From: Nitrosopumilus sp.
GTDB lineage: Archaea > Thermoproteota > Nitrososphaeria > Nitrososphaerales > Nitrosopumilaceae
Direction: 5' to 3'
Assembly (NCBI GenBank): GCA_965205675.1
Contig: OZ242186.1
Span: forward strand, 960,001-1,024,000
DNA: 64,000 nt
Shown here: positions 1 through 21,547 of the stretch, one piece after another
Layout: every line of letters begins with the position of its first letter
How positions within the stretch are numbered: position 1 is the stretch's first letter
The notes under the pieces: generated by a model
Database searches by the model: none
Told to the model about the DNA's origin: nothing
What the model saw: the letters and a program-made list of their open reading frames with translations, nothing else
Translations under genes and position numbers: made by a program

Positions 1-616
1 CTGTAATTTACGAGATTGACAAATCACGTTCAATGGATGTTCCCAAGAGAATTCTCAAGGGATATGATGGCAACATTACAAGTGATTCGTACCCTGCATG
101 GAACCATGTTGGAAGCACTCACCAGAAATGTCACATCCATTATCTCAGAGAGGTTAATGATACCATTAATCACAAGAATCCCGGACCAGAATTTGCACCA
201 TTTGCCAAGAATCTCAAGAAAATAATTTATGACTCTCATGGTGTGGCAAAAATAAAATCAGAATCAGAAAGAATCCATGCAAAAAAGAATCTTGAAAGGA
301 GAATTAATCACATCATATCAAAAAAATACACAGAGAAAAACTGTATCAGGTTTGTAAAAAGATTGAAACGTGAGAGAAAAATGCTTTTTACATTCCTAAT
401 TACTGGAACTGATTCACACAATAACACAGCAGAGAGGGCAATCAGACCAAATGTGATAATTCGTAAAATTACAAACGGTCATAGAACCATTCATGGTGCT
501 GATTCTCATAAGATACTGATGAGTATAAAGGAGACATGCAGATTACGAGGATTAAACTTTCATGATTATTCTTTAGAATATCTTGGAGATTTTACTTCAA
601 AACTCTAGACAGTTAC
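1..616 (+). mobile_element. IS66-family element, 3' part (copy 1, cut by window edge)
   Basis: Same sequence as the 3' half of the full copies; ends in TIR ...CAAAACTCTAGACAGTTAC at 616 (GTAA-type end typical of IS66). Confidence 0.95.
3..608 (+). CDS. IS66 transposase, C-terminal part
   Basis: SDSYPAW, QKCHIHYLRE and HNNTAERAIRPNV motifs of IS66 TnpC. Confidence 0.93.
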   Translation, partial: VIYEIDKSRSMDVPKRILKGYDGNITSDSYPAWNHVGSTHQKCHIHYLREVNDTINHKNPGPEFAPFAKNLKKIIYDSHGVAKIKSESERIHAKKNLERRINHIISKKYTEKNCIRFVKRLKRERKMLFTFLITGTDSHNNTAERAIRPNVIIRKITNGHRTIHGADSHKILMSIKETCRLRGLNFHDYSLEYLGDFTSKL

Positions 617-882
617 TGAAAAACCTATTTTGTCCTTAGAACAGCAGTTGGAAAAAGAAATACGTGAAAAAAAAGTTAGAAACAAAAATTATTCTAGAAT
701 TTCACCTTGGATTGATCAATTCAGACATCTAAACTTGATGATGGTTACAGAAAAAACCCCCGTTAGAAACTTGTTAAAATCTAAACATGCGCAAGATACC
801 GTTTATGAAGCATGGATGTTTTTCGAGTTCTTTGACTACTGTCATGACCAAGGAATGTATCCGAGATTAAAGATTGACACTA

Positions 883-2028
883 TAGTTTAGGCATATAAAT
901 TTTGAACGAATTATCAACTATTTTAACCCAAAAGATCTAGATCATAGTTTATACTTACAGAATCATGTCAAAACAAACTAAAGCATTAATGGTATCTTCA
1001 GGAAGCCATTTCATGAAAGGAACAAGCATTAATTTTTTAAGAAAAACATGCAAGAATGAAAAAAATGCAAAAGCAAAGATAAGATTAAAGGCTGCAATAC
1101 TAAGAAAACAAGATATTCCATATTCTGTGATATGTGCCAGTTTGGATGTCATACCATCAACTCTGTCCTACTGGCTAAATCGAATGGATAAAGAGGGAAT
1201 AACTGCATCACACCGTAAGGAATATTCTGGCTCTAGATGTTTCTTAAATAAAAAACAACTAGTGTCATTAAGAGATGATCTAATTTCAGGTCCAGAAAAG
1301 TTTGGATTCAATCAATTCATGTGGAGTACAAGAATGGTAATTACACATGTGAATAAAAAATACAACACGCTATACTCTGCAAGAGGAATGCGTGAATTGC
1401 TGCACAGAATCGGATTCTCATCTAAAAAACCAAGACAGACTCATCACAAATCAGCCTCAAAAGAGGAACAAACCCGTTTTAAAAAAACGCAAAAAGGAGT
1501 ATCAAAAAATATTCCAAATTGGGACATATCACGCTATGTCTGGATGAGTCAACAAATAAAGTAGCACCCAACATAAAGCGCAGATGGTATCTTGCAGGCA
1601 ATAACATTACCACACCAATTAATTACACTCGAGAAAAATTTCAATCATTTGGTGCATTGGGCAATAACGGTGTATTTTTTTGCAGGTTCTATGATAAATC
1701 AAACACAGACTCATTTCTTGATTTTTTAGAATCACTGCAAAAACAATTTGGTAAGAAATTGTTACTGTTTGCAGATAATGCATCATACCACAAAAGTGTC
1801 CGAGTAAAAGAATTTCTCAAAGCACCAAAAAATAAAGTAATAATTAGATATTTTCCTGCATACACTCCAGAACTCAATCCAATTGAGATACAGTGGAGAG
1901 AAGAGAAAAATGATAATGCCAATACATTCTTTGCAAATGGAACTGAAATGAGAAAACACATGCAGAAGAGACTAGATAATGGAGCGGTTCGAGTTGTTAA
2001 AGTGTTCAAATATTTAATGCCTTAACTA
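883..2028 (+). mobile_element. IS630-family element type A (copy 1)
   Basis: TIR TAGTTTAGGCAT / ATGCCTTAACTA, TA duplication at 881-882 and 2029-2030; near-identical copy at 56973-58118. Confidence 0.95.
965..2025 (+). CDS. IS630 transposase (orfA 965-1564 + orfB 1519-2025, probable -1 frameshift)
   Basis: HTH orfA; orfB with LDES, DNASYH, PAYTPELNPIE; slippery TTTTAAAAAAAC near 1477-1489. Confidence 0.9.
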
Positions 2029-2447
2029 TAAACCGTATTGTTTTGAATTTGAATATGATGGAAAAGAAATTATCTTTTGGTATGATAAGCAATACAATCC
2101 TCCAAGACCCCATGCATGGGCAGTTCAGCAGAGACCTGATTTCACTGTAATGGTAAATGGAAAAATTGTAGGGGTGTTTGATGCAAAGAATTTCTCTCAA
2201 GGACAAGAAACATCTCCTGCAAGAGTTAAGATGCTGTCTTACATGAGTAACTTTAATTCTGATTTTGGAGTGTTGTTTTTTCCATTTGTGCCTGAGTTTT
2301 GGGATGAGATGAATAAAAAACAGAAAAGAAAGGCATTGTTGTCGCATTATTCAAAACGATTTTCTAAAAAATCTGAAGATGAACTACTTGTATTAGATGT
2401 GGTGGGTTTGAAAAGAATTTGTTTTTAATTTATTCAAATAAATAATT

Positions 2448-3677
2448 TCAATTAAGTGAATATTCTGATTCTCCACTAGTGTTAATTTCCCAGTTGACTA
2501 GTCTTAATTCTGATATTCTGCCCATGGTTGCAACTCTCCATCCAACTATTCTCTTTTTGGTAGTCTCGTCTGCCAGCGTTTCAAGATTATTCAATTCGTA
2601 ATCTTTAACCATTTTTGGATTTTTAGCCTTGAATTTCTTGAATGTCTTGAGGAATTCTTCATCTAAACTATCTGTGATTTTTGAATTTTTTGGAGGATTT
2701 TTAATTACTTTGAGTGCAGTGTCTATGAATAATTTTTCTAATTCTAAATCTGGAATCAATTCATCTAAGATAAATTCTGATTCTTCTTTGGTTAATGCAT
2801 TTTCTTTATAATTTCCAGCAATTACTGGATTATGTTTCAAGCTGAAATCTTTTCCTTTTTCTGTTAATGAAACAAACATTTCTCCATTCTCTTCAAAAAT
2901 ATAAATTAATCCTAATGCAATCGGTGCACCTTCGGCATATTCTTCCTTTGTTTCTCTATCTTTACGAAGTTTACCGATGTATTGGTCTTTGTATCTTTTT
3001 TGAGACTGTGCAATTTTTGTAATATCTTCTCTGTCTTTTCCTTTTTTAGGAAGGCCCGTCGATATTTTTTTGTTTCTTGGCACATTATCTGATTTTTCAA
3101 TTTCTGTTAGGTGATTTGAAATTTCTTCAGAAATATCATATGCTTCTGTTCTAAAATCTGAATATTTTATTTTAGTGACTTTTTTTTCATATAACATATT
3201 TGATAAAACAGCAATTACAATTTTTACTGGAAAGAATCTACTGTAGAATCTAAATAATAATGGATAACCATCATATTCATACACACAATCTGGTTTTTTG
3301 ATTTCTAATTGTGAAATATATTTTAAAGTTTCATCAAGATTATGTTGTAATCTTATGTGATCATGGTCTGAAATTTCATGTTCTTTTTGTTTTTTATATT
3401 CTTCATCTGCTTTTTCTTGTTCTCCTTTTCCAAAGTGTCTTTCCCTTTCTGCTTCTTTTACAAATCCTAACATGAATTTTTCTTGTTCAGTAGTAAATGG
3501 CATCATGGATTGCATGATTTTGATTGAATCTTCGGGATGTTCACTTTCCCATGTAAGTAAAATATTGACTGCAGTATCTATGAAAATATCTGAATTTCTG
3601 TATCTTTCCTTATCTACAAGTTCCTTGATTTTGGATGCATGTTTGTCCATTATTTCGTATTGAACTCTATTTCCCAT
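2448..3677 (-). CDS. Uncharacterised 409-aa protein, probable N-terminal ribbon-helix-helix and winged-helix-like C-terminal region
   Basis: Long intact ORF; N-term KIKELVDKERYRNSDIFIDTAVNILL resembles CopG/RHH; LTEKGKDF resembles a wHTH wing. Confidence 0.6.
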   Translation of the reverse strand: MGNRVQYEIMDKHASKIKELVDKERYRNSDIFIDTAVNILLTWESEHPEDSIKIMQSMMPFTTEQEKFMLGFVKEAERERHFGKGEQEKADEEYKKQKEHEISDHDHIRLQHNLDETLKYISQLEIKKPDCVYEYDGYPLLFRFYSRFFPVKIVIAVLSNMLYEKKVTKIKYSDFRTEAYDISEEISNHLTEIEKSDNVPRNKKISTGLPKKGKDREDITKIAQSQKRYKDQYIGKLRKDRETKEEYAEGAPIALGLIYIFEENGEMFVSLTEKGKDFSLKHNPVIAGNYKENALTKEESEFILDELIPDLELEKLFIDTALKVIKNPPKNSKITDSLDEEFLKTFKKFKAKNPKMVKDYELNNLETLADETTKKRIVGWRVATMGRISELRLVNWEINTSGESEYSLN

Positions 3678-3869
3678 ACCCTTTATGTGAGAAATATACT
3701 ATATAATGCTGTGTATATGTGGAATAATCTCACTTATGTTGTACGATCGCATTATTGTATGAATTTAGGCATGGAAATTAGTTATTCCGATCAACTTTAT
3801 TTTTGATATAATGATCCTTATGTTGTAGATAAAGTATATACTTATATATCGTACTACCTATTACTTAGT

Positions 3870-4427
3870 ATGGAAAACGGGTCAAACAAACATAACTACA
3901 CACTAGATACATGCGTAGGTATCAAGATTTGTGAAAATGCAAATGTTGGTGATCTACTATCTTGTAGAATTGACTTTGAATCCTCAACAATTCATATCTC
4001 TTCACAAACCGTTTTGGAGGCAACTAGATTAGGATATGATGTAGATTACATTTCAAAACAAATCAAAAAATCAATTGAAGTTAAGGTCATTTTTGGTTCT
4101 ATTACAAATTCAATGATTCAAGATGCAAAATATCTTGAAACAAAATGTCCAACATTACATGATGGGGATTCTAAGATTTTGGCCTATGCCAGGGCAACTG
4201 GTACTACCTTGGTAACTTGTGATAAAGGATTAGCAGAGGCTGCAATATTATCTGGAACTAAAATTGTTAATCCAGATCTATTACCTTGTGATAAAATTGG
4301 ACTAGGAAAATCCAAGATGCAAAAAATTGTTGATAAAGCAATTAGAAAACCATCTGAGGCAAAACAAAAAGTAAAATCGTTTGTACTTAAACCAGGACAA
4401 AAAATCGTTTGGAGGTCATTCCAATGA
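3870..4427 (+). CDS. PIN-domain ribonuclease with basic C-terminal extension
   Basis: YTLDTCV...ISSQTVLEA...LHDGDSKILAYA...LVTCDKGL: acidic catalytic tetrad of PIN. Confidence 0.85.
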   Translation: MENGSNKHNYTLDTCVGIKICENANVGDLLSCRIDFESSTIHISSQTVLEATRLGYDVDYISKQIKKSIEVKVIFGSITNSMIQDAKYLETKCPTLHDGDSKILAYARATGTTLVTCDKGLAEAAILSGTKIVNPDLLPCDKIGLGKSKMQKIVDKAIRKPSEAKQKVKSFVLKPGQKIVWRSFQ

Positions 4428-4636
4428 TAAATTTTGATGAAAATGGAAAACGTCTTAGAAGCGTATGCGTTACATATCGTACTCATTATACTCATGATGT
4501 AGTAGAAGAGGATCTAAGTTCTAAATTTGATGGATTATCTGATAAATCAATTGAAATTGTACGTGGAATGGTAAGTTCTGAGAAAGTTGAAAAATTAGAT
4601 GCTTTATTAGTTACATTGGGAACTATTTTAAAATAA
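4424..4636 (+). CDS. Small hypothetical protein, translationally coupled to the PIN gene
   Basis: ATGA overlap with PIN stop; 70 aa. Confidence 0.55.
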   Translation: MINFDENGKRLRSVCVTYRTHYTHDVVEEDLSSKFDGLSDKSIEIVRGMVSSEKVEKLDALLVTLGTILK

Positions 4637-4689
4637 TTTTAAATAATGACAATCTTTAATTCATACTCTCATATGATAGTCTATTAATT

Positions 4690-7600
4690 ATGATAAGAAG
4701 TCACCTTGTTAAGGCGTTATATCAGAATCTTTTAGGACCATTATACGGTCCTAAAGAAATTATTGAGGAACCTTTCTTAAAATATGAATTAGGTATTCTA
4801 AATTCATCTTATTCAATTGATGATGATATTGCTCAAAACCAATCATCTACAAATGCTGAAATAAATCCAAATGTTGCTGAAATTAAGCAAGAAATTCATG
4901 AATTAAATAATTCTGAAAATACTCAGGGCTCTGAAAATCTACGACAGGAAGTAGATACAGAATTAAACCTAAAATCTGGTGCGTTATCTCTTGGACTATC
5001 TTTTGTATTGGAAGGTGCTCACCCTAAATTTCAAATTTGTTTAACTTGGGCTAGATATGTTAAGACTGTAGAATTTGGTTCTGTTCCTAATTTATTTATG
5101 AGGAAACCCAATTTTTTTGTCACTGATTGGATTGACGCTAGCAAAAAATTTGATTCTGTAAAATTGAGTAATGATGTCAATGGAAGTATAGTTACACATT
5201 CTGGTGTTTTTCTTCATGTTATAACAAAAAAGATAGAACATTTTGATAAATGGACTGTTCAAATATTTTTGGAAAACAAATCTGAATATGATGTAACAAA
5301 AAGTCAATCCGAAGTTACTAGAATTTTTCAACCTCAAATTAGAGTAAAATCTGAAAACGAACTTTTAGATTTAGATTCTAGTCATAATCAACATACCACA
5401 TACAATGATGATTTACTTTACCATAATTTGAGAACTAAAGCAAGAGGTTACTTGTGTGCTGCAGTATGGAATGATGTTGATCCTGAAAAAAATTCTGACG
5501 GTGATATTGGAAAAATCTCTTGGCCTGATTCAGAAATTGTACCTGAAAAAATTAAATCATTTTTTACATGTCCTGATGTACGAACTGAATATCTTCCACT
5601 TTATTCTATTTTACAACCAGATCAATCTGATAAACCTATTTTCAATGCAAATACACTTTCACAAACATGGAAATCAACTGATATTAAATCCCAACTAAGT
5701 TCAATAGAAAAAAATTATACAAATTGGATTGATGATCGAAAAAAAACTCTTGACAATGAAGTACAAAATAAAATCATTGAACCCCAACTTAAAGAAAAAG
5801 GTGAGTCAAATCTTAGAGATTGTTATAGTTCTAGGGACCGAATCAAACATGGTATTGATTTTTTAATTGAAAACAAAAAGGCTCGGGCTGCATTTTGCTT
5901 TATGAATGCTGTCATGAATGATAAACGAGTAAATGAAACAAAAAATAACGCAAATCCTGATGGTGCAGATTTGGAATGGAGGGAATTTCAAATGGCATTT
6001 ATTTTACAAAGTCTTAAGGGCGTTAGTGGAGAATCTAAAGATGAACGTGATTTATCTGATGTATTGTGGTTTCCTACTGGTGGTGGAAAAACAGAAGCTT
6101 ATCTTGGAATCGTAATTTTCACTCTAGCATTTAGAAGATTATCTATTGATGAAAACCAAAGTAATGAAGGAGGGGTAAATGTAATTTCCAGATACACTCT
6201 GAGATTGTTAACTATTCAACAATTCCAACGTGCACTTGGAGCAATTGTTGCAGCAGACCTTAGACGAGTAAGGAATTGGCTTCCTTCTGAGGCAATTGAA
6301 GGAGAAGAAAAAATTTCTGATCCTGTTTTAATAAAAAAAAGAGATGATTGTTCCTTTTGGGGAAATCATAGATTTTCAATTGGAATGTGGATTGGAAGTG
6401 GTATAACTCCTAAAGATTTTGCAATAACTACTGGCCCTGAAGGTAAAAAATTTCTTAATTGTGAGGGTGCATTACGTCCACAATGGCATAAAGATAGAAG
6501 AAATTCTGATGAAGATAGTGGCCCTGATCCTGCGCAAGTCCAAAACTGTCCTGTCTGTAAAAATATACTATGTATCCCACGAGAACAAAAAGAATACGGT
6601 TCTCCTAAAAAACTCACTTGGATTATTTGTTCTCCTCATTCTTTAGAGATTCTTCAAAAAATTACTAAAGAAGATATTGAATCTCAAAATCAAATTGCTC
6701 TTAGAGAAAACCCTGAATTTGAATTACTTTCAAAATCTACTGATGGCTTTTCGTATTATCGTTTAACCATGGAGCTTTTACCAGTTCGAAAAAATCAAGT
6801 TCTTGATAGAACATTGATTGATAGTTGGTGGAATTCCCATGTGAAAGGTAGATTGGATCCTGATGACGACCGTGACCCTCTTGAATCAACCAGTCCTTCT
6901 ATGCCTGGATATTTTTTCCTTCATCATGGTCATCCACGACCTCATGACTTTGCAATTTTTTGTACCAACAAATCTTGTGAACTCAATAAAAAAATACAAT
7001 GGTTTGAAAAATTAGAAAATCAAGTTGACACTTTAGTTCCAAAACCTTTTCAAATTCCTGATTCTCCTCACCTTTCAATCTCTGTCCCAATTTCTGCATA
7101 TGTTTCAGATGAACAAGTTTATGCAAAATGTCCTAGTTTTCTAATTGCTACAGCAGACAAATTTGCAAATCTTCCTTTTGAACCTCGATGTGCATCTTTA
7201 TTTGGAAATGTCGATGTTCTTCATCGAAGTTTTGGATATGGTCGAAGAATTGCATTTACTGCTCCTCTTCAAAATAGAAGTGGAAATCAAAGAATTCAAG
7301 TTCCTCCAGAAAAACTTATTGATGTACGTGGATTTAATCCCCCTTCTTTGATACTACAAGATGAATTACATCTTATCGAAGGACCATTGGGAAGCATGGT
7401 TGGAATTTATGAAATGGCTGTAGATGTATTATCTAACAATGGATCTAGACCAAAATATATTGCTTCAAGTGCAACAATTAAGGAAGCAGAAACTCAAGTT
7501 GGAACAATTTTCAGACGAAAAATTTCTATTTTCCCTCCTCCTGGAATCGATTCTTTTGATAATTATTTTTCAAAAATTGAAGAAGATATTCCATGTACTG

Positions 7601-10600
7601 CAGAAAAATTTGGAAGACTTTACCTTGGAATCTCATCGACTAAATCAACTGTGTATCTTCCAATAAAGGCTCAATCCATTATAATGAGTGAAATTTTTAA
7701 AATTAGAAATAATCCTGATAATTATGATTTAAATGAAATTGAAAGAAATGATCTTCAGTCATCAATAGATCCTTATTGGACATTTGTTTCTTATTTTACA
7801 GATTTACAATTATTATCAAAATTCACTGACTATTACCCTGAAAATATTATAGAAAATGTATCTAATTGGAGTAATACCCGAGTATCTAATTCTTTAACTC
7901 GTTTACCTAACAAGCCTATTGATTCTGGTTTGAAATTATTTCCTTTAATTTCTGATAGAGAACTTGAAGTTTCAAGTATTTCTATTTTTTGTGCTAATAA
8001 AATTGGGAAAATAAAAATTGCATTATATCGAAGTGACAACCCTGTTGGAAAATTAATTTATTCTTCTGAATTTCAGGATTGTAGATTAAATGAAAATATT
8101 TTTGATTTAGCTGTTGGTGATTTTCCTAAAATCAATAAAGGTGAAAAAATTTGGGTTTCGGTGATTAGTACTGATCCAAAAACCATTTTTCAATTAGTTG
8201 AAATAACTGAAGATTCATTAGAAGACAAAACTTTTGAACCCACTACAGAAAACTTCCCTACTGATTTTAAGGAACTTTCCTCTATTGAAGAAAATTTTTC
8301 TATAAAATTCACTCTCAATTCATCATTTCGATTATTAACTGATGAAAAAAATATTCAACTTTCTAGTGAAACTAAACCTGAAGATCTTACAAAAAATCTA
8401 GAACAATTACAGTCAAAATTCTTAATTGATTCACTTCAAACCTCACCTGTTTTTGGAACTGGTATTGATGTTGATCGACTTGGTGTGATGCAAATTATGA
8501 ATCAACCAAAAACAAATTCGGGATATATCCAATCTTCTGGTCGTGTAGGTAGATCAAATCCCGGTCTTGTTATAAGCTGGCTTCGTGCAGGACGTGCAAG
8601 AGATCTTAATCATTATGAAAATTTCATAGGTTATCATAGAATGCTTCACAAGTTTGTAGAGCCTGTAACTGCTTCTCCTTTTTCTGATGAGGCAATGAGA
8701 TTGTGTTTGGGTCCTATACTGGTTGCAATTTTGATTAACGCACGTAATGTTTCAGGCGTTTCTGTTAGTAATAGGTGGGTATTGGATTCTGGGCCTGATA
8801 GGATGAGGGAACATCACAATGACCCTGATGTGGAATCTGTAAAAAATGCATTATCTGAAATTTCTAAATCAAACACTATTGCTGATTATAGAAAAATGCC
8901 TCCTGAAAGATTTGAACATCTTTTCAACGAACTCAAAGGACTATGGCACAAAATTGCAAAAGATTTGGCTGATGATAAAACTAGACCGTTTACTTATCAT
9001 GAGAGAAGACCTAACATTGTTCCTGAGAATAACGTTGTGCTTGGTACGCCCAATCATAAAGATCTTGGATTGGATTATGTGTATGATGATACCCCTAATT
9101 CTCTAAGACAAACTGAATCCAGTTCTGTTTTTTATGGTCCGAAAAATGATATTACTCAAATCAGACCATCTCAATTCACTACCCGTTATGGGCCAGGTAC
9201 ATTGATTTCTGGAAAAAAATCTACTTGGGTGATTCCTCCAATTCAAGAAATTGTTTCAGATCTGAAAGACACTGGAAATTTTGAAGCACCAAGTACCTCG
9301 GGGTATAAAAGATTATACAAATATGAAATTAATGATTCTAGAATGAAACGTCTTTTACATCGATTCAATTCTGATATTGATTGGCAAAAATTAAAACTTT
9401 TTTCATTACCTACAAATTCTTCATTAACTGTTAAAGAATTCCAACCTCTTTACCGTTGTAATCAATTTCCTAGGTGGGCGGTTTGTCATAATAAAGTTCA
9501 TCCTTCCCGAAGAATATTAGCTGAGATGACTCCTGCTCAAAAAGGAATTGTTATCAAATGTCCTGCATGTCAAGAACATTCTGATATTGATGATGAAAAA
9601 AGTACTCAATTTTTTAATGCTCGATATGTTTTAGCTTGTTGCAATGGTCATTTAGATGATGTAAATTGGCAATATGAAATTCACCGCTCTGGTGTAAAAT
9701 GTGGAGGAAATGTTTTCGAATGGGTTTCATCTGGAAGTAATGATGATGCAGAAATTGTTTGTTTAGGACATTGGGATTGTAATGACCCAAATAGATTCAT
9801 TAAAAGTACTTGTAAGTCTAGTGCCACATATTTAGAATTAAAAGGAAGATCTAAACTTGGTCAAATGGATTGTTCTGCAAAGTTTGCTGAAACAGGACTG
9901 ACTGATCCTGATGGATGTCCACGTCCAATTGATAATATGTCTCAAGCAAAGATGATCAGTAAAACCCAGATGAGTTTACGAATGCCTATTGTTGCAACAA
10001 CGATGGAAATTCAAAAACATAAAGGAATTTTATATGAAATGTATGAGCCCTTGGCCTCATCAATTGTTATGGGAATTTCAATGTTGGAAAAAATTAATCC
10101 AAATTGGACTAAAAATGATTTTCTTGAAACCGTTCTACGTAATAATAGAGGCAGTATTAGAGGAATAACTAATCAAATTTTAAGGCAGACAGAAAATGCG
10201 TCAGAAAATATGTTTAGAGAGGTCATAGAAGCTGTTAAAAAATTTGCAAAAACTTTGGACAACCGTTCTGAGTCTTTATCTGAATACGATTCATTAAATG
10301 AAGAATTAATCAGTCTTGAGAATCTGACCCTTGATAATGGAACTGGTGCCCAAATCAGTCCTGATGATCCTGAACCTGATATGCGTTTTCCAATTCAATT
10401 CGAAACTAGTATCGATTTAAATTTTGAAGCAATGCCTTTTGGTGACATTAAAGTAACTCAAGTACAAACTGGATATACTAGGGAAATATCTCCTCCAACA
10501 TTACGTGGTTCTCTTTCTCAAGATGATACCAATGATGGTGTAAGGATTGGTAAAGTTATTTCTTCAAACGAAAAATTTGTTGATGAAAATGATGGTAGGT

Positions 10601-11235
10601 GGTATCTTGGAAATCAATCCAGAGGTGAAGGAATTTTTATACATTTAGATCCAAAAGTCCACGAAGATTCTATGGATGTCTTTAATGGTAATACTTTTGA
10701 TGATCTTAAAATTTGGGAATCTATTCATCAGAAAATTTTGGAGAAAAATACACCTCTTCTTGAAAAATTAAAACAAGAAGAAAGCAATGAACAACAGATT
10801 GATGCATTAGAAAAAGAAAATATGCAAAGCAATCCTCTTTTTGTTTGGTGGCATTCCTTTGCTCATGAACTAATTAATCAATTATCCATTGATTCAGGAT
10901 TTATGGGTGTTTCACTTGGAGAGCGAATTTATTGTATTGAAAAACAAAATGGTACATTTGGTTCTGGAATTTTCATATATGTTTCAAGTCCAGGTGCAGA
11001 TGGAACTCTTGGCGGTCTCACAAGTTTAGTTAATTTGAAAGTACTTCAAGAAATTATTGAAAAAACTTTACAGAAAATTTCTACTTGTTCTAATGATCCT
11101 GTATGTTCTGAAAGGAAAATTAATCTTAAACGTAGAACTGGTGCTGCTTGTCATATTTGTTTGATGAATTCAGAAACATCTTGTGCCTACCAAAACAAGT
11201 TTCTAGATAGAAATTTGATTAGAGGGACTTTATGA
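4690..11235 (+). CDS. DISARM-like DrmA helicase-DrmB (DUF1998) fusion protein, 2181 aa
   Basis: DrmA motifs LWFPTGGGKTEAYLG, SRYTLRLLTIQQFQR, ATADKFA, QDELHLIEGPLGSMVG, ASSATI, GIDVDRLG, YIQSSGRVGR; DrmB motifs IRPSQFTTRYGPG, CCNGHLDD, HSFAHELI, SLGERIY, GTLGGL, CSNDPVC...AACHIC...SETSC...NKFLDR. Confidence 0.9.
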   Translation: MIRSHLVKALYQNLLGPLYGPKEIIEEPFLKYELGILNSSYSIDDDIAQNQSSTNAEINPNVAEIKQEIHELNNSENTQGSENLRQEVDTELNLKSGALSLGLSFVLEGAHPKFQICLTWARYVKTVEFGSVPNLFMRKPNFFVTDWIDASKKFDSVKLSNDVNGSIVTHSGVFLHVITKKIEHFDKWTVQIFLENKSEYDVTKSQSEVTRIFQPQIRVKSENELLDLDSSHNQHTTYNDDLLYHNLRTKARGYLCAAVWNDVDPEKNSDGDIGKISWPDSEIVPEKIKSFFTCPDVRTEYLPLYSILQPDQSDKPIFNANTLSQTWKSTDIKSQLSSIEKNYTNWIDDRKKTLDNEVQNKIIEPQLKEKGESNLRDCYSSRDRIKHGIDFLIENKKARAAFCFMNAVMNDKRVNETKNNANPDGADLEWREFQMAFILQSLKGVSGESKDERDLSDVLWFPTGGGKTEAYLGIVIFTLAFRRLSIDENQSNEGGVNVISRYTLRLLTIQQFQRALGAIVAADLRRVRNWLPSEAIEGEEKISDPVLIKKRDDCSFWGNHRFSIGMWIGSGITPKDFAITTGPEGKKFLNCEGALRPQWHKDRRNSDEDSGPDPAQVQNCPVCKNILCIPREQKEYGSPKKLTWIICSPHSLEILQKITKEDIESQNQIALRENPEFELLSKSTDGFSYYRLTMELLPVRKNQVLDRTLIDSWWNSHVKGRLDPDDDRDPLESTSPSMPGYFFLHHGHPRPHDFAIFCTNKSCELNKKIQWFEKLENQVDTLVPKPFQIPDSPHLSISVPISAYVSDEQVYAKCPSFLIATADKFANLPFEPRCASLFGNVDVLHRSFGYGRRIAFTAPLQNRSGNQRIQVPPEKLIDVRGFNPPSLILQDELHLIEGPLGSMVGIYEMAVDVLSNNGSRPKYIASSATIKEAETQVGTIFRRKISIFPPPGIDSFDNYFSKIEEDIPCTAEKFGRLYLGISSTKSTVYLPIKAQSIIMSEIFKIRNNPDNYDLNEIERNDLQSSIDPYWTFVSYFTDLQLLSKFTDYYPENIIENVSNWSNTRVSNSLTRLPNKPIDSGLKLFPLISDRELEVSSISIFCANKIGKIKIALYRSDNPVGKLIYSSEFQDCRLNENIFDLAVGDFPKINKGEKIWVSVISTDPKTIFQLVEITEDSLEDKTFEPTTENFPTDFKELSSIEENFSIKFTLNSSFRLLTDEKNIQLSSETKPEDLTKNLEQLQSKFLIDSLQTSPVFGTGIDVDRLGVMQIMNQPKTNSGYIQSSGRVGRSNPGLVISWLRAGRARDLNHYENFIGYHRMLHKFVEPVTASPFSDEAMRLCLGPILVAILINARNVSGVSVSNRWVLDSGPDRMREHHNDPDVESVKNALSEISKSNTIADYRKMPPERFEHLFNELKGLWHKIAKDLADDKTRPFTYHERRPNIVPENNVVLGTPNHKDLGLDYVYDDTPNSLRQTESSSVFYGPKNDITQIRPSQFTTRYGPGTLISGKKSTWVIPPIQEIVSDLKDTGNFEAPSTSGYKRLYKYEINDSRMKRLLHRFNSDIDWQKLKLFSLPTNSSLTVKEFQPLYRCNQFPRWAVCHNKVHPSRRILAEMTPAQKGIVIKCPACQEHSDIDDEKSTQFFNARYVLACCNGHLDDVNWQYEIHRSGVKCGGNVFEWVSSGSNDDAEIVCLGHWDCNDPNRFIKSTCKSSATYLELKGRSKLGQMDCSAKFAETGLTDPDGCPRPIDNMSQAKMISKTQMSLRMPIVATTMEIQKHKGILYEMYEPLASSIVMGISMLEKINPNWTKNDFLETVLRNNRGSIRGITNQILRQTENASENMFREVIEAVKKFAKTLDNRSESLSEYDSLNEELISLENLTLDNGTGAQISPDDPEPDMRFPIQFETSIDLNFEAMPFGDIKVTQVQTGYTREISPPTLRGSLSQDDTNDGVRIGKVISSNEKFVDENDGRWYLGNQSRGEGIFIHLDPKVHEDSMDVFNGNTFDDLKIWESIHQKILEKNTPLLEKLKQEESNEQQIDALEKENMQSNPLFVWWHSFAHELINQLSIDSGFMGVSLGERIYCIEKQNGTFGSGIFIYVSSPGADGTLGGLTSLVNLKVLQEIIEKTLQKISTCSNDPVCSERKINLKRRTGAACHICLMNSETSCAYQNKFLDRNLIRGTL

Positions 11236-11777
11236 GCGGGTATTCTATTGGAAATATAGAGTCTATTGGAGCTTCTGGTAAGGCATGGGTTGGATTTCAT
11301 GCCGTTGATATTGCTGACCTTTTCTTTTCTGAATTAAAAAATGCAAACAGGTCCATACAAATTTCTTCTTTTTCTACAGGTTACGAAAGCTCTGAAATGG
11401 TGAATTTTTTTAATATTCTTGAGGAACATCTTGAGAATCCACGAATGAAGATTAGTATTATTATCAATGATGATGGAAAAGAAAAAACAATTACTCCATA
11501 TGCGCGAAAAAAATTAGGAAAATTACAAAATGATTTTCCTACACAATTTTTTCCACAATATTTTAAACAGACAAAAGTAAAAAATCTAAATAAAATATTA
11601 CATGCAAAACTTACGGTAATTGATGGAACTACTGCTTTAATTGGCTCTGCTAACATTTCAAAAGGTGCATTAGAATCAAATTATGAAATAATGTTAAAAG
11701 TAACTGGACAAGTAGCAGTTGATTTTTCAAAAATGCTTTCAGAACTATCTAAACAAATAAGGTTGAATACAGCATGA
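11232..11777 (+). CDS. drmC: Phospholipase D-family nuclease (DrmC-like)
   Basis: Single HKD motif LHAKLTVID...IGSANIS...NYE; ATGA overlap with the DrmA-B fusion. Confidence 0.8.
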   Translation: MSGYSIGNIESIGASGKAWVGFHAVDIADLFFSELKNANRSIQISSFSTGYESSEMVNFFNILEEHLENPRMKISIIINDDGKEKTITPYARKKLGKLQNDFPTQFFPQYFKQTKVKNLNKILHAKLTVIDGTTALIGSANISKGALESNYEIMLKVTGQVAVDFSKMLSELSKQIRLNTA

Positions 11778-13273
11778 CTCAAAGAAGATTTGATCCTGAA
11801 AAAGCAGATGTTAAACGAGAAAATAATTTCAATATTAATTTATTTGAGAAATTAATTCCCAAGTTTGACACTATCTACAAGAAAGATCTCAAGACTAGTA
11901 TGATTCGTGATTGTGAATCTATAATTCAAAGTGTTGAAAGATTATCATTTAAAATACCTTCTAAAAAAAGAGATGATTCTAATTTGATAAATCCTTGGAC
12001 TATTCAAGGAGAATTTGGAGATTATGCTTACTTTACAATAAAATTACCAATGCCCATTATCCACTATATTCATCCTATATTCAATCGTCTTCATTTTCAA
12101 ATTGGATATTATGAAATGAGAAAGGATGTTGAATTCATTCCATGCTATTTGATGAATTTTAATCATGTTTCTCTTTCAAAAATAGAAAAACCCCGTCATT
12201 CTCCTTTAATTTTTAGTTCAATTAATGATGGATTATACACGAAATTTAGTCATCAAAATGGGAAATACATGAATTTTTCATCATCAAATATAGTACAATT
12301 TGGTGCAACAAATGAAAATATTCAGATTTCAGAAAGAGAAAGTATTGCCAAATGTTTTGAATATGCATATTGGTGTTTACCTGCTCCTAAACGAATAACC
12401 AATTTTTCATCTATTCATAATCTGATTTATCATTCGTATAGTGAAATTAAACGAGGTGGATTTATTCAGTTGAATAAAACTTTATTAAAAATTCTAAAAA
12501 TAAACAGAAAAGAAACTTTGCGAATTTTACCTACAGCAAAAACTATCAACTGTTATTTTGCTGATGTTGTATTGCTTGTAGATGATGGTGAAAAAATATC
12601 TTCTGAAAGACGTCCACTATTGTTAGCGGACAGTATTGTAAATTCATTTAAAGAAGGAGATATGTTTAATGCACTAATTATAACACAAAACGTTTCTACT
12701 CCAAAATATTCCCTTGTAGTTGGAAGTATTGGTAAGGTAATAGAATTGAATAATATTATTCCTCTATTAAGTATTATAATGTGGAAAGAGCTCCAGTATT
12801 TGGAAGAAAATTCTAGTATTACACGTGTAAATAAAATAAGTAAATTAACAAATAATATTCTAAAATTTATTGAACATAATTCTGGAGAAGTAGGAATAAT
12901 GAATCCTTCTTTAGAATGGAATTCAAATATTGGAAAAAAAATTGAAAAAGCGATTAATGATCTTTTCCCATTGTATTTTATTGATGATGATACTATCCAT
13001 CAATTATCTCCAACAATCATTTCTTTTCTTTTAAGTTATGATCCAAAAATTTTACGAAACAGAGATGCATTAACAACAATTATAAAAATTCTTAATTTGA
13101 TTAGCGTTAATTCAGAACAATGGGAAGAATCTACACGTTCACAATTAGAAATATCAAATAACCAAAATAATCATCTTACTTCTTCTACAATAAATCTACT
13201 CCTTGATAATTTACCTATTCTAGTAAACATGATGATGTATTCTAGAATCTTTTCGCAACACTATTTGGACTGA
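11774..13273 (+). CDS. Uncharacterised 499-aa protein in the DISARM-like operon
   Basis: Intact ORF, ATGA-coupled to the PLD gene; no confident motif. Confidence 0.75.
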   Translation: MTQRRFDPEKADVKRENNFNINLFEKLIPKFDTIYKKDLKTSMIRDCESIIQSVERLSFKIPSKKRDDSNLINPWTIQGEFGDYAYFTIKLPMPIIHYIHPIFNRLHFQIGYYEMRKDVEFIPCYLMNFNHVSLSKIEKPRHSPLIFSSINDGLYTKFSHQNGKYMNFSSSNIVQFGATNENIQISERESIAKCFEYAYWCLPAPKRITNFSSIHNLIYHSYSEIKRGGFIQLNKTLLKILKINRKETLRILPTAKTINCYFADVVLLVDDGEKISSERRPLLLADSIVNSFKEGDMFNALIITQNVSTPKYSLVVGSIGKVIELNNIIPLLSIIMWKELQYLEENSSITRVNKISKLTNNILKFIEHNSGEVGIMNPSLEWNSNIGKKIEKAINDLFPLYFIDDDTIHQLSPTIISFLLSYDPKILRNRDALTTIIKILNLISVNSEQWEESTRSQLEISNNQNNHLTSSTINLLLDNLPILVNMMMYSRIFSQHYLD

Positions 13274-13288
13274 TGAGGATGTTTATTC

Positions 13289-14026
13289 TTGATTAAAATC
13301 AACAAAGAAAATGATATTACAATACTAACTGCATCAGTTACTGATTTTGCAGATTCTTTAGGATATTGTGAATACAAAATTCCATTATCTATTCAGGGAG
13401 TAAAGCCCAAACCCTCACAATCCTTGATTCTAGGCACAAAAGCTCATCATGCAGAGGAAAAATACGAGCAAGAGCATGTGGAATTAGAGCCTGTATCAGT
13501 TGAGCAAATCGAAGACAAACAGGAAGACATTGAGTTTGCCCGAGAAAACATTCATTCTACTTTGATGATGCCGTTTGAATTTCCATCCGAACATGTTCTA
13601 GTTACCCTCTCAGGAAGGATTGACAAAATTCTAAGAGTTGATGAAACCCTGATAGTTCAGGATGACAAGTTTGCAGGGCGGCCGCAAACCTATGACAACA
13701 AAACACAGCCATATCCAAGCCAGCTGTTGCAAGTATTAGCATATCTTAACTCCAGTTTTTCTGCAAAGAGAAGCAAAGACCCGGAGGATTTCTTTGAGAT
13801 GCCACACACACAAAAGAAATGGCAGATTAGAATCTGTGACAGGAAAACTAGGGAGCCCTATAAAATATTCTCAGAAATTCAAGATGCTTTTTCACTCCAT
13901 TATTTGCATACATCATTAAAAAAATTTGCAACAATATCTCTTGGAATTAAAAATCCTGAACATCATAACAGTGTAAACAAATGCAACGCATGCAATTTGA
14001 AAACTTTATGTGATTATAAAATATAG
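13289..14026 (+). CDS. Cas4-like PD-(D/E)xK nuclease with 1+3 cysteine Fe-S motif (no CRISPR array seen)
   Basis: GYCEYK...GTKAH...LSGRIDK...VQDDK...QVLAY...KCNACNLKTLC. Confidence 0.85.
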   Translation: MIKINKENDITILTASVTDFADSLGYCEYKIPLSIQGVKPKPSQSLILGTKAHHAEEKYEQEHVELEPVSVEQIEDKQEDIEFARENIHSTLMMPFEFPSEHVLVTLSGRIDKILRVDETLIVQDDKFAGRPQTYDNKTQPYPSQLLQVLAYLNSSFSAKRSKDPEDFFEMPHTQKKWQIRICDRKTREPYKIFSEIQDAFSLHYLHTSLKKFATISLGIKNPEHHNSVNKCNACNLKTLCDYKI

Positions 14027-14039
14027 ATTTTGTGACATC

Positions 14040-14253
14040 ATGGCTAAACTAATTTGCAATTCAAAAGAATTCACATATTTCATCGAGCCTAGAATACGAA
14101 ACAATGTTGCCACAATGACAAAAAAATCAAAAAATAAAGTAGATTCTAGGTGTCAAAAATGTAACCAGAAAAAAGAACTAGATGCCGCCCATAAACATGG
14201 AAGTTCTAGAAAAGAGATCATCAAGATGGTTCTAAGTGATTATGAAACAGATG
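14040..14253 (+). pseudogene. Probable HNH-type nuclease, N-terminal part, truncated by IS66
   Basis: RCQKCNQKKELDAAH motif; ORF runs into the IS66 TIR at 14254. Confidence 0.55.
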
Positions 14254-15643
14254 GTAACTGTCTAGAGTTTTGAAGTAAAATCTCCAAGATATTCTAAAGA
14301 ATAATCATGAAAGTTTAATCCTCGTAATCTGCATGTCTCCTTTATACTCATCAGTATCTTATGAGAATCAGCACCATGAATGGTTCTATGACCGTTTGTA
14401 ATTTTACGAATTATCACATTTGGTCTGATTGCCCTCTCTGCTGTGTTATTGTGTGAATCAGTTCCAGTAATTAGGAATGTAAAAAGCATTTCTCTCTCAC
14501 GTTTCAATCTTTTTACAAACCTGATACAGTTTTTCTCTGTGTATTTTTTTGATATGATGTGATTAATTCTCCTTTCAAGATTCTTTTTTGCATGGATTCT
14601 TTCTGATTCTGATTTTATTTTTGCCACACCATGAGAGTCATAAATTATTTTCTTGAGATTCTTGGCAAATGGTGCAAATTCTGGTCCGGGATTCTTGTGA
14701 TTAATGGTATCATTAACCTCTCTGAGATAATGGATGTGACATTTCTGGTGAGTGCTTCCAACATGGTTCCATGCAGGGTACGAATCACTTGTAATGTTGC
14801 CATCATATCCCTTGAGAATTCTCTTGGGAACATCCATTGAACGTGATTTGTCAATCTCGTAAATTACAGTCCATTTACTCACAAATGCCCACAACCAGTG
14901 GTTCTGGCCATCTACCCTCCAACTTGTCTCATCACCATGTATGTTTAGATCTTCTTTTAACTCCACAATCATTGTATCATATCTGCTCCCAAATGCTTTT
15001 GATACTATTGATACTGCATGATTAATTGCAGATTCTGTAATGTGCAGTGAGAAGAGCATCTGCAAAAGATGAGATATTTTACCATACGATAATCCGATAG
15101 TTTTCAGTGATATGATTAGCACCATGAGCCTAATCCCAAATCTCTCATTGGGTAGCGCAGTGTGAATGTTACCCGAGATTTGTTTTTTGCAGTTTGTGCA
15201 GTATCGTCTAACTATCGTATATTTTGTCACAACTGCTTTTGCAGGAATGATGTCTTCTACTATTCTGGTGTATGAATCAGTTGGTTCTGAGAGTGATTTG
15301 CCACATGTGTTGCACTCTTTTTGGTCAACTGTAATGGCATCATCAATGTGTGCCCGTCTGCTTCTGCTTTTTCTAGGATGTCTTGATGTTTTCTTCTTTT
15401 TTGCAGTTTCAGTCTTGTTTGGTTTTGCTTTGATATTTCTTGCAACAAGTGTAGACACTGTTTGTTTTAGTTCTGCAATTTCTCTGTGTAACTGACGGTT
15501 TTCTTGCTCCAACGAGTGACATCTGTTACGATAATATTCCAGCTCATCATATACTGACAATTGTATATTGTAATTTGTCACTGATCAGAAAAGATATAGA
15601 TAAAAAATATTAAAGAAAGTACTTCAAAACTCTAGACAGTTAC
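14254..15643 (-). mobile_element. IS66-family element (copy 2), no target duplication
   Basis: TIR GTAACTGTCTAGAGTTTTGAAGTA at both ends; flanks AACAGATG and TATTTTTG do not match. Confidence 0.95.
14262..15581 (-). CDS. IS66 transposase (439-aa variant)
   Basis: Coiled coil, CxxC zinc finger, HGDETSW, NNTAERAIR. Confidence 0.95.
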   Translation of the reverse strand: MTNYNIQLSVYDELEYYRNRCHSLEQENRQLHREIAELKQTVSTLVARNIKAKPNKTETAKKKKTSRHPRKSRSRRAHIDDAITVDQKECNTCGKSLSEPTDSYTRIVEDIIPAKAVVTKYTIVRRYCTNCKKQISGNIHTALPNERFGIRLMVLIISLKTIGLSYGKISHLLQMLFSLHITESAINHAVSIVSKAFGSRYDTMIVELKEDLNIHGDETSWRVDGQNHWLWAFVSKWTVIYEIDKSRSMDVPKRILKGYDGNITSDSYPAWNHVGSTHQKCHIHYLREVNDTINHKNPGPEFAPFAKNLKKIIYDSHGVAKIKSESERIHAKKNLERRINHIISKKYTEKNCIRFVKRLKREREMLFTFLITGTDSHNNTAERAIRPNVIIRKITNGHRTIHGADSHKILMSIKETCRLRGLNFHDYSLEYLGDFTSKL

Positions 15644-16726
15644 TATTTTTGTTATTTCTAAAATAATGAATAATTATCTTTACAAAGAAATATTTGAGAA
15701 TTTCAATTGATATTATTGGTTTGTGATTTTGTACATTAGTTTCTTCTGAGATAATCAAATTAGCAATTATCCATGCATTGTACAAAATCAATGAATAGTA
15801 AAAATACAACAATCTTATGGATTGGTTTGAACTGGTGGTTTTTGGTCTGAACCTTCCCACACATGCATAGCCTGTTTCAATCCCCCAACGTTTCTTGTAA
15901 TCAGTTGGAATGTTTTGTATGTTATATGATATTTCTTTTGGTGAAACGTTTGTTGCAAACACAACATACTGATCAATAATATCTGATTTTTTTCTTGCAT
16001 TTTTGTTTGGTAGAATAACTAGATTAAATGATTCTACATGTCCTGATGATGATTTTATTGTGTATGGCGAGATTGACTTTCTATCTCCATTAACGTATTG
16101 TACAATTGCATCTTTGATTCGAGAATTCTTTTTTGCAGGCATTAGAAATTTCAGATTCTTTTGTTTTATTTCTGAAATTGTTCCAGCTGTGAAAAACTCC
16201 CTATCCACTAGCAATAGTTTAATCTTGATTCCATTATTGATGCCATCAGAGAGTAATTTACGCACAAAATCGGCATTTGATTTGTTGTCATACAAAGGAT
16301 AACAACCTAATTGAGCCCTGATTCTTTTTTCAACGCACTGCATGGTGCAGTAACTCTCAAAATGAGTAGTACTGTTTTTTGATTTTGATTTTATTAAAGA
16401 ATGGTTTGGCAATTTGTCATATCTTGGGATTAGATGTTTGTCAATTGCTACAGTAACTGGTTGTTCCAATACTCCCAGTTCTCGTAATTTTGATACTGTA
16501 CTATCTAGTGACTGATGTAATTGAATTTGCATTGTTTTTTGTGATATTTTTGATATGATTTTTCTCAACCATGAAGAGAAGCATTATCTGATTCCATTGC
16601 CAGTCTCTTTAATCCAGATTCAGAATATGAATTTCCCAAACACAATGACATGACAGAATTGTGTGCATCTGCATTGTGGAACCGTGAGTTATTTTTACTA
16701 GAGCATGGAAACAACAAGATATTGTA

Positions 16727-20474: not shown

Positions 20475-21547
20475 TATGTACTGATATCAGTTGCAAATAT
20501 AGAGTCCAAAGTATCAGTAGAGCAAACAATAGGTAGGATACTGCGATTATCAAAACAAAAAGAAAAGAAAAACCAAGAATTAAACTGCTCTTATGTGTAT
20601 ACATCATCACGAATCTTTGAGGAATCAGCTAAAGCATTAGAGAAAGGATTACTACAAAACGGATACTCTAAAAAAGATTTCAAGCAATTAACTGAAAAAA
20701 TACAAAGCAGGGAAATCTACAAGAGAGCAATTACTGATAAGGATATAAAAATTCCATGTATTGGAATAAATGATAAAAAACTACGAAGAATAAACTTTCA
20801 TGATGATTTTTTGGGTTCTGACTTTACATTAAGCAAACAAAAACCTCCTGAGAAATATCTTCTATACTTTGATGAAAATAAAACAAAGAAAGTTGACATA
20901 GAATATGGAGATAAGTTGAGTAGTTCTGTGCAAACATCACTTGATGTTACATATCAAAACAAGGATTTTGATGAAACTCGCCTGTTAAATTGGCTTGATA
21001 AAAAAATAAAACGCATAGAATATTCTCAAACAGACAAAAGAGAATATTTAGCAAAAATCATTAATCATGCGACAAAAAAAGAAAATATCTCACTATCTGA
21101 ATTATCAATTAATTGCTACACTTTACGTAACATCATAAACAGACAGATTGACAAACTAGAGCAGACAAAAGCAGAAAAAACATTCCTACATCTTGAAGAA
21201 TCAAATAAACTGATAATGGATAAAATACAATATTCCCCAGAACAAACACTTGAGATTAGCAATGTTTCTGAGGAACCATTTAAACTGCATCTCTTTGAGC
21301 GGGCAGGAATAATGAATAGAGAAGAATTAAATCTTGCCTTGAAAATTGATGGACTAAAAAACATAAAGTGGTGGTATAGGAATATGGATAAAAATGATTT
21401 CTACATACAAGGATGGCAAAAATTCAGATTCAATCCTGATTTTATAATAAAGACTAAATCTGGTAAATATGTCATTACAGAGTACAAAGGGGAAAATTTA
21501 CTTAGCAATGATGATACAAAGTACAAGGAAAAACTAGGTAAAAAGTG

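Follow-up and report, generated by a model that had tools for sequence, protein, structure and literature searches.

The stretch of DNA analysed here (the window) comprises 64,000 nucleotides of the genome of a Nitrosopumilus sp. that is assembled as a single contig of 2.01 Mb (genome G000; window G000:C1:960001-1024000). It carries a cassette of three genes related to the restriction-modification-linked defence island system (DISARM). The helicase gene drmA and its partner drmB are joined in one open reading frame (ORF), which is followed by a small phospholipase D (PLD) gene, drmC, and by a gene for a protein of 499 amino acids (aa) that we call U499. Positions are those of the window unless another contig or locus is named. 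The parts of the cassette are as follows.

4690..11235, plus strand: fused drmA-drmB gene (drmAB), 2181 aa, with PADLOC and solved-structure matches on one ORF
4810..4974, plus strand: variable acidic segment, residues ~41-95, candidate counterpart of the DrmA trigger loop
9094..9177, plus strand: fusion junction, where the DrmA homology ends and, after a linker of 7-10 residues, that of DrmB begins
11232..11777, plus strand: drmC, single-HKD PLD nuclease by its PLDc_2 and DrmC model matches, 181 aa, ATGA overlap with drmAB
11774..13273, plus strand: U499 accessory gene, 499 aa, third gene of the cassette, predicted OB/winged-helix protein, ATGA overlap with drmC

The 2181-aa ORF covers DrmA and DrmB end to end with no internal stop codon. 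An initial annotation of the window had read it, at exactly these coordinates, as DrmA followed by DrmB, and had expected the PADLOC models of both to fall on one protein, as they do: 12 DrmA and DrmB models match, and every PADLOC match is of one of these two kinds. The DrmA models span the first two thirds of the protein (PDLC02571, residues 2-1063 and onward, E 2.7e-298) and the DrmB model PDLC02583 covers residues 1487-2179 (E 3.6e-107). The DrmA part was placed at about residues 1-1480 and the DrmB part, composed of OB-CON-DUF1998, at about 1487-2181. Pfam returned Helicase_C only. Among 177,635 distinct sequences of solved chains, the sole matches were DrmA (7s9v_A) and DrmB (7s9v_B) of the Serratia complex 7s9v/7s9w, with E values of 4.3e-87 and 3.5e-29 for the single protein and of 4.5e-151 and 4.9e-53 for a family profile built from 20 sequences. 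The protein contains FPTGGGKTEAY, QDELH and QSSGRVGR, which we take to be the Walker A, DExH and motif VI elements, respectively. The C-terminal cysteine cluster of the DUF1998 region (C2133/C2139/C2154/C2157/C2165) is invariant in an alignment of 20 fused homologues, the window protein included, and only 16 residues follow it to the end of the protein. The acidic segment at residues ~41-95 is poorly conserved in this alignment and pairs, in a profile alignment, with residues 178-237 of Serratia DrmA. In the Serratia protein, an unstructured trigger loop (DrmA 176-232) blocks the DNA path until a 5' single-stranded DNA (ssDNA) overhang displaces it, according to the accessible text of PMC9142583. 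The acidic segment is, by this alignment, a candidate equivalent of the trigger loop.

The junction lies where the initial annotation had placed it. Residues 1469-1496 (nucleotides 9094-9177) read ...NSLRQTESSSVFYGPKNDITQIRPSQF..., and comparison with the split relatives, in which DrmA ends about 10 residues past the SLRxxE motif and DrmB begins M..IRPSQF, confirmed both the end of the one and the start of the other. The fused form is a clean end-to-end join of DrmA and DrmB with a linker of 7-10 residues. Around it, S1471, R1473, E1476, R1492, P1493, Y1500 and G1501 are invariant in the 20 fused proteins. A check of the junction on reads had been proposed. Logan contigs of runs X1 and X2, near-identical to each other, span positions 8400-9900 with 0 differences, pieces of run X3 cover 8587-9257 with no difference, and none of these carries a stop at the junction; run X4 gave one 151-base piece. 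The contigs do not count as independent support because the runs may be the source sample.

A search for DrmAB homologues over 5.8 billion proteins gave 894 matches, with 120 clusters listed. The initial annotation had called for other DrmA-DrmB fusions, and 70 of the 120 listed clusters are full-length fusions (2108-2255 aa, coverage at least 98%, identity 36-79%); below them in the list stand split DrmA proteins of ~1450-1650 aa with 35-42% identity. Trees of the DrmA part were built with FastTree (71 rows) and with a quick IQ-TREE run (LG+G4, 46 rows, rooted on five canonical split DrmA). The fused clade is monophyletic with 100% support in both (18 and 14 rows, respectively), support values from these two programs as run here being optimistic. 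The sister of the main fused clade consists of split genes, and the larger clade around them, in which most other DrmA are split, also has 100% support. Other fusions (P0078, P0080 and, at ~1900 aa, P0121-P0124) are placed elsewhere in the tree, and the minimum number of changes between the fused and split states on the 46-row tree is 5. Because the fused clade is nested among split DrmA and at least five changes are needed, the fusion is derived and recurrent in the long-DrmA branch, with the caveat that some metagenomic "fusions" may be gene-calling artefacts.

The DrmA-DrmB fusion is real and heritable. The initial annotation had argued for selection from an intact core among ruined neighbours, and this argument is weak: if repeats are counted from a length of 400 bp and an identity of 93% upwards, 45.5% of the 8584-bp windows in the genome contain none, so that local intactness decides nothing either way. 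A better argument for selection comes from the family as a whole, with its many divergent full-length ORFs of 2100-2250 aa with invariant catalytic residues. Across 60 related genomes surveyed for DrmAB and the flanking genes, any DrmAB match was found in four (G009, G015, G036 and G039). Broken copies also occur. In G009 (locus L019; G009:C1:1824143-1825971) the fused gene is decayed to an N-terminal fragment with an in-frame TGA, accompanied by a remnant of U499, and at L093:231-6655 it is broken into ORFs of 351 and 1764 aa. A scan of IMG/VR with the fused-family alignment gave 23 loci, all at 24-35% identity, and hence no close relative of the fused clade on these viral contigs.

The three genes of the cassette are closely coupled. 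ATGA overlaps are present at both boundaries, drmAB/drmC and drmC/U499, as the initial annotation had described. PLDc_2 covers residues 33-161 of DrmC (E 8.1e-16), and PDLC02614 is the best of the PADLOC DrmC models matched by the 181-aa protein (E 5.8e-19). The motif HxKxxxxD...GSxN (H124, K126, D131, G138, S139 and N141) is invariant in an alignment of 20 DrmC homologues that includes the window row. The protein is too short for the N-terminal four-helix bundle that most DrmC carry and that is possibly tied to the DrmA/DrmB split, as stated in the accessible part of Bell et al. 2025 (10.1101/2025.09.15.676423). DrmC measures 159-200 aa in the long-DrmA branch, in split and fused loci alike, and 233-274 aa in the canonical branch. 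Because small DrmC accompanies both forms, the missing bundle tracks the branch and not the fusion, which speaks against the suggested link between bundle and split.

The order of fused gene, PLD gene (174-187 aa) and U499 recurs in all nine loci that hold a fused gene and downstream DNA (the window, L013, L090, L091, L092, L093, L095, L096 and L097), and the co-occurrence of the 499-aa gene with the fusion, raised in the initial annotation as a point to test, is borne out. The identities between loci map the limits of the unit. Between the window and L096, the flanking genes are 88.5% (409-aa gene), 83.2% (185-aa gene) and 89.0% (Cas4-like gene) identical, whereas the cassette proteins are only 44.2% (DrmAB), 49.4% (DrmC) and 30.2% (U499) identical. 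Conversely, the L096 cassette is 87% (DrmAB), 86% (DrmC) and 72% (U499) identical to that of L013, a stretch of G036, which is a Nitrosopumilus sp. and a relative within the same genus, and the flanks of these two are entirely different. Since the cassette and flank identities part ways, DrmAB, DrmC and U499 must be exchanged as one unit between conserved flanks, and the flanking genes are part of the chromosomal island. The unit of inheritance thus appears to be the translationally coupled three-gene cassette of DrmAB, small DrmC and U499.

U499 matched no family of Pfam or PADLOC, even at relaxed thresholds (E 1-5). Its profile gave nothing meaningful against PDB sequences (best E 0.59), and the ESM Atlas yielded no usable match. 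The family is small, with 60 representative clusters among 1.84 billion proteins. Its hidden Markov model (HMM) matches directly after drmC in 18 distinct loci, among them the split loci L014, L100, L012, L109, L106, L118, L104 and L111 (hhalign probability 99.4 for L109 and 99.2 for L106), and it also picks up the remnant in the decayed locus L019. The HMM had no match in the Chloroflexota/Streptomyces-type sub-branch. A 568-aa gene after drmC in L023 was considered and is not related to U499. A confident AlphaFold2 model built from 37 sequences has a pLDDT score (local distance difference test, as predicted) of 86.4 and a predicted TM score (pTM) of 0.89. Foldseek placed the dsDNA-binding HIN domains first (E from 1.6e-4), with RPA70, LEF-3 and POT1 lower. 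VIA-align, in which a Z below 8 may mean only a common arrangement, resolved ~residues 199-330 as an OB fold (PriB Z 7.8, RPA core Z 7.3) and ~residues 323-417 as a winged helix (Z 6-7.3), and its top row (Z 8.3) spans both folds. A U499 homologue, L100:4858-6483, carries an inserted cold-shock (OB) domain (PADLOC CSD_V, E 1e-4; alignment columns 230-300), which points in the same direction, to a DNA-binding OB protein. We thus regard U499 as a conserved unnamed partner of the cassette that is predicted to bind DNA through an OB fold and a winged helix.

The absence of a methylase, which the initial annotation had reported, holds inside the window only. A tblastn search with the neighbours found in relatives located an intact 451-aa C5 methylase upstream of the window (G000:C1:956052-957407, minus strand), and beside it a truncated Vsr of 99 aa (G000:C1:957471-957770, minus strand). 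Together they occupy window-relative positions -3948..-2230, and 7,283 bp separate the start of the methylase from that of drmAB. The methylase matches PF00145 with an E value of 2.4e-63 and the PADLOC models MTase_II and DrmMII (PDLC02650) with 299.5 and 255.8 bits, respectively. Its ORF contains GGPPCQSFS (PCQ), ENV and QNRKR, presumably the motifs of a C5 methylase. Near it, an IS630-like copy has cut an EcoO109I-like endonuclease gene, of which a 61-aa remnant is left. Three repeat blocks occupy the interval between the Vsr remnant and the 409-aa gene, namely an IS4/5-type element, the upstream one, which matches Pfam DDE_Tnp_1, and the IS66-like and IS630-like copies at the beginning of the window. 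The initial annotation had allowed that a cognate methylase might have been deleted from this locus by the IS66 event at 14254. The findings come close to this: a methylase of the same family does stand beside the cassettes of relatives, but here it was displaced by the upstream insertion sequences (IS) and not deleted.

L013 has the orthologous methylase and Vsr directly upstream of its cassette, in divergent orientation, and no EcoO109I-like gene was found there. In L090, the methylase lies 3.5 kb upstream of the cassette beside an intact EcoO109I-like gene, and in L091 a C5 methylase directly follows U499. A 389-aa gene between the methylase and the 409-aa gene of L090 was also followed up; it has no counterpart in the G000 genome. 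Fourteen more distant split loci were scanned over their nearest ORFs (60 of the 154 candidates), and 13 of them hold a PF00145 methylase, seven together with an HhH-GPD glycosylase. The pairing with HhH-GPD, seen in L012, L020, L103, L104, L106, L109 and L147, is the usual one in the long-DrmA branch. Vsr takes its place in the Nitrosopumilus-type loci, and the two look like alternative repair partners for the deamination of 5-methylcytosine (5mC). As defined in the accessible text of 10.1101/2021.12.28.474362, class 2 DISARM consists of the core triplet and a pfam00145 methylase, "on occasion" with drmE; its type system is that of Bacillus paralicheniformis, with drmA, drmB, drmC and drmMII (same source; PMC11529989, likewise in its accessible part). 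The long-DrmA branch fits this published definition because the core triplet and the pfam00145 methylase are both present. The ORF scan, which ran from 15 kb upstream to window position 24065, gave neither an SNF2 DrmD, as the initial annotation had said of the adjacent genes, nor an N6-adenine DrmMI. The only methylase in this range besides the C5 enzyme is the N4/N6 type II enzyme of an MvaI/BcnI-type pair, a separate and apparently intact type II restriction-modification (R-M) system of the same island at 22024-24065. At 20388-21695 lies the C-terminal part of a Res subunit of type III restriction, present as a fragment (PADLOC REase_III, E 3e-16).

The cassette is surrounded by the following features.

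1..2032: two IS copies, one IS66-like and ending at 623, the other IS630-like at 877-2032, with Pfam DDE_Tnp_IS66 and HTH_33/DDE_3 matches and repeat blocks
2448-3677, minus strand: 409-aa gene of a neighbour module, no family
3870-4427, plus strand: weak PIN-like gene, 185 aa, with PIN and DUF5615 matches that are sub-threshold only
4409-4636, plus strand: conserved small ORF, ~70 aa, kept in L090, L096, L092, L019 and L099
13289..14026, plus strand: Cas4-like PD-(D/E)XK gene, 245 aa, TTG start, PDDEXK_1 match and four-Cys pattern
14010..14253 (ORF to 14273), plus strand: truncated 87-aa ORF, called HNH-like in the initial annotation, 3' end cut by an IS at 14253/14254
14254..15643, minus strand: IS66-like insertion sequence, Pfam DDE_Tnp_IS66 and zf-IS66

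Upstream, the 409-aa protein gave nothing beyond sub-threshold noise in PADLOC and Pfam at relaxed thresholds. The divergent pair of 409-aa and 185-aa genes is also found in G017 and G014, both of which have no DrmAB match, and the module at 2448-4636 is a unit of its own, outside the DISARM system. It was also seen at L090:4144-6320, at L096:101-2280, in L166 and in L167. A paralogue of the 185-aa gene with 25% identity is present elsewhere in G000, adjoining a CARF/HFX_2341-like gene. In G017 the 189-aa gene and the Cas4-like gene have a serpin between them. Downstream, the IS66-like element has ~25 full or partial copies in the genome (93.7-99.8% identity), and an IS4-like element at 15631-16726 has ~15. 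A composite transposon, suggested by the inverted IS66 copies that bracket 624-14253, was considered and is uninformative with ~25 copies of the IS in the genome. A second PD-(D/E)XK_1 gene (49290-49955, plus strand) is unrelated to the Cas4-like gene.

We consider it probable that this locus encodes an anti-virus system of the class 2 DISARM type, with a fused DrmAB, a small DrmC, U499 and a C5 methylase that marks self DNA, working by the mechanism proposed below. Several observations weigh against this reading. The separate, adjacent drmA and drmB of DISARM are replaced here by one gene, and the accessible text of Bell et al. 2025 (10.1101/2025.09.15.676423) describes a consistent separation of helicase and OB-CON-DUF1998 as peculiar to the DISARM branch of YprA. 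No DrmE model matched any protein of the cassette or its flanks, at E values up to 1. The methylase is not operonic with the cassette and is scored higher by the generic MTase_II model than by DrmMII, and no methylase is present in the available DNA of L096 (2.3 kb upstream and 10 kb downstream) or L092 (3.2 kb upstream). Because an EcoO109I-like gene adjoins it in L090 and has left a remnant here, the methylase may serve an ordinary type II R-M system. Furthermore, the fold matches of U499 are middling (Z at most 8.3, TM by query ~0.19), which makes its DNA binding by OB fold and winged helix a supported prediction short of proof. Most of the doubt falls on the methylase, which may be the cassette's own partner, as we suppose, or that of a decayed type II R-M system, or both.

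These points about the methylase lead to an alternative that we find unlikely but still worth serious attention, in which the cassette is self-sufficient and independent of methylation. The C5 methylase would then belong to a decayed type II R-M system sharing the island, and self would be told from non-self by free 5' ssDNA ends and by U499. The restriction gene of L090 and its remnant here, the MTase_II score and the loci L096 and L092 all fit this alternative, as does the exchange of the three-gene unit between conserved flanks without a methylase; in class 1 DISARM, moreover, loss of the methylases gave no autoimmunity (accessible text of 10.1101/2021.12.28.474362). It is opposed by the 13 of the 14 distant relatives in which a C5 methylase adjoins DrmA, DrmB and DrmC, usually with a T:G repair enzyme and with no recognisable restriction gene, and by L013 and L091, where the methylase abuts the cassette (with Vsr but no EcoO109I-like gene) or directly follows U499. 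The divergence of the methylase also roughly tracks that of the cassette (75% versus 58-71% and 50% versus 44-48%), these being two comparisons only. A further proposal, which we hold to be unlikely, is that DrmAB, small DrmC and U499 form a self-contained archaeal module that is horizontally exchangeable, with U499, a tandem-OB/winged-helix DNA binder outside any named family, as a new sensor or specificity subunit replacing DrmE, and that it would work with any host cytosine methylase or with none. If it were true, the repeated re-fusion (at least five state changes) would be a sign that small-genome marine archaea are under selection for having the sensor in a single chain.

The initial annotation had favoured a methylase-less DISARM with the Cas4-like Fe-S nuclease and an HNH nuclease as effectors. 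Its reading of the locus as an archaeal DISARM variant with a covalent sensor agrees with what we found, a DISARM-type cassette with a single-chain DrmAB in an archaeon, but the effectors do not, and we judge this model highly improbable. In favour of the model, the Cas4-like gene follows U499 on the same strand, starting at a distance of 16 bp here and of 8 bp in L096. The matches behind its assignment are mixed: PDDEXK_1 scores above its cut-off (27.8 bits against 22) and the four-Cys pattern is present (C27 ... C232xxC235x5C241), whereas Cas_Cas4 (17.6 bits, cut-off 22.7) and the Cas4 models of PADLOC (E 4.8e-5 to 7e-3) stay sub-threshold. The distribution of the gene, however, is not that of a partner. 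It occurs in six of the 60 related genomes, five of them (G010, G016, G017, G022 and G032) with no DrmAB match; G015 has both, on different contigs, and G036 bears the fused cassette but lacks the Cas4-like gene, and L091 likewise showed none in the 3.4 kb that follow its U499. With 84-89% identity in L090 and L096, against 44-58% for DrmAB in these loci, the gene is much better conserved than the cassette; it is an island neighbour and not an obligate partner. In L090 (16689-18370) and L159 (532-2238) a DUF7662 gene directly precedes it, which suggests a separate two-gene module. The ORF called HNH-like is truncated and cannot be assigned: it matched no HNH or other family in Pfam or PADLOC up to E 5, had no homologue in any locus, and gave a BLASTP E value of 0.16 with the HNH gene of L013. 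The methylase upstream also contradicts this model. It is, in turn, very unlikely that the whole locus is a non-working relic in which IS expansion uncoupled the methylase and broke Vsr and other neighbours while the cassette drifts. Repeats make up 13% of the genome in 169 blocks, 14 of which fall inside the ~68 kb that surround the locus; truncation has affected Vsr, the restriction gene and the 87-aa ORF, and the copy in G009/L019 is decayed and that in L093 broken. Yet the three cassette ORFs and the methylase are all full-length, and the window proteins keep the invariant catalytic positions, although their rows sit in those alignments, so that the columns are merely unbroken. The ordinary frequency of IS-free stretches of cassette size is undecisive in either direction.

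Finally, we give hardly any credence to the view that the locus is not DISARM but a YprA-family system with a normally unsplit helicase, ARMADA type I, Dpd and BRIGADE being examples. Outside DISARM, unsplit helicases are the norm, and that of Dpd accompanies a bundle-less PLD protein, as here; the Dpd helicase has, however, lost the four-Cys cluster (accessible text of 10.1101/2025.09.15.676423), which is retained in DrmAB. DrmAB also ends 16 residues past this cluster, with no C-terminal Vsr nuclease, its PADLOC matches are all to DrmA or DrmB, and no BrxHII-like, PglX-like or 7-deazaguanine genes were present among the scanned neighbour ORFs. In the trees, the clade sits within split DrmA whose neighbours include DrmB, DrmC and a C5 methylase. 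Because the trees hold no Dpd or ARMADA sequences, the separation from these systems is by features and not by joint phylogeny.

For the class 2 DISARM reading we propose the following mechanism, in which the activities are predicted by homology to the Serratia and Bacillus systems. In Serratia, DrmA and DrmB form an essential 1:1 heterodimer, and the system needs ATPase activity and DNA binding (accessible text of PMC9142583). Because the acidic segment pairs with the trigger-loop region of Serratia DrmA, we infer the same type of autoinhibited, DNA-structure-sensing helicase. The single-chain DrmAB would be an ATP-driven superfamily 2 (SF2) helicase whose OB-CON-DUF1998 canopy is tethered covalently instead of being a separate subunit. 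The N-terminal acidic variable loop would hold DrmAB off DNA until a free single-stranded 5' end of the invader displaces it, and DrmAB would then translocate along the invader DNA and block its replication. The single-HKD PLD protein, as a dimer, is a likely but possibly dispensable nuclease. U499 may be a DNA-binding accessory that holds or recognises DNA for the complex, taking the place that DrmE occupies in some systems of class 2. The C5 cytosine methylase would mark self DNA, and Vsr would normally repair the resulting T:G mismatch damage. In G000, the methylase gene is intact, though displaced by the three IS to 7.3 kb from the cassette, and both Vsr and the EcoO109I-like gene beside it are broken.

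We found no description of the fused clade or of U499 in the DISARM literature searched, which left the supplements of Bell et al. 2025 aside, and one literature search on DISARM in Nitrosopumilus returned no relevant paper. The mechanism of DISARM is still poorly understood, including the roles of DrmC and DrmE and the weight of methylation. A natural single-chain DrmAB indicates that the 1:1 DrmA-DrmB heterodimer can be hard-wired, and it would be convenient for structural and biochemical work because only one protein has to be expressed. The fused clade is an exception to the generalisation of a consistent split made in the accessible text of Bell et al. 2025 (10.1101/2025.09.15.676423), and U499 is a candidate for the missing DNA-handling component of DISARM. 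The locus also concerns the antiviral defence of marine ammonia-oxidising archaea, which are abundant organisms.

Compared with known systems, the cassette shares with the MrfA/YprA repair helicases the ancestral layout, in which OB-CON-DUF1998 (MZB) is fused to the helicase. The window itself encodes an MrfA-type paralogue, an 877-aa DEAD/Helicase_C protein (44991-47624, minus strand) with a fused MrfA Zn-binding (MZB/DUF1998) domain, which hhalign aligned to DrmAB over only 49 columns around motif VI and which has no PLD, U499 or methylase partners. ARMADA type I, which occurs in archaea too, likewise has a YprA-family helicase that is giant and of a single chain, set in a defence island. 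Its features are a nuclease domain of the Vsr type at the C terminus, an insert resembling BrxA, and partners that are BrxHII-like and PglX-like; of these, the nuclease domain and the partners were looked for here and not found. DpdJ/DpdK of Dpd and BRIGADE combine an unsplit DISARM-like YprA helicase with a small bundle-less PLD protein (10.1101/2025.09.15.676423, accessible part), but here the four cysteines are kept, a C5 methylase is present, and no ALBA domain or deazaguanine genes were found among the scanned ORFs. With class 1 DISARM of Serratia (7s9v, 7s9w; PMC9142583), the locus shares the RecA core, the DUF1998 region and an acidic variable segment at the position of the trigger loop. 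That system differs in its two-chain 1:1 heterodimer and in having the SNF2 protein DrmD and, as N6 methylase, DrmMI, both absent from the ORFs scanned here. With class 2 DISARM, the locus shares DrmA, DrmB and the PLD protein DrmC in that order, and a C5 methylase in the neighbourhood, here and in relatives. It differs in that DrmAB is one polypeptide whose DrmA part is ~400 residues longer, DrmC is ~70-90 residues shorter, U499 with no DrmE match follows drmC, the methylase is non-operonic and associated with Vsr (HhH-GPD in relatives), and the host is an archaeon. We thus do not regard the locus as a new kind of system, but as a probable DISARM with a derived fusion, a small DrmC and a conserved unnamed partner.

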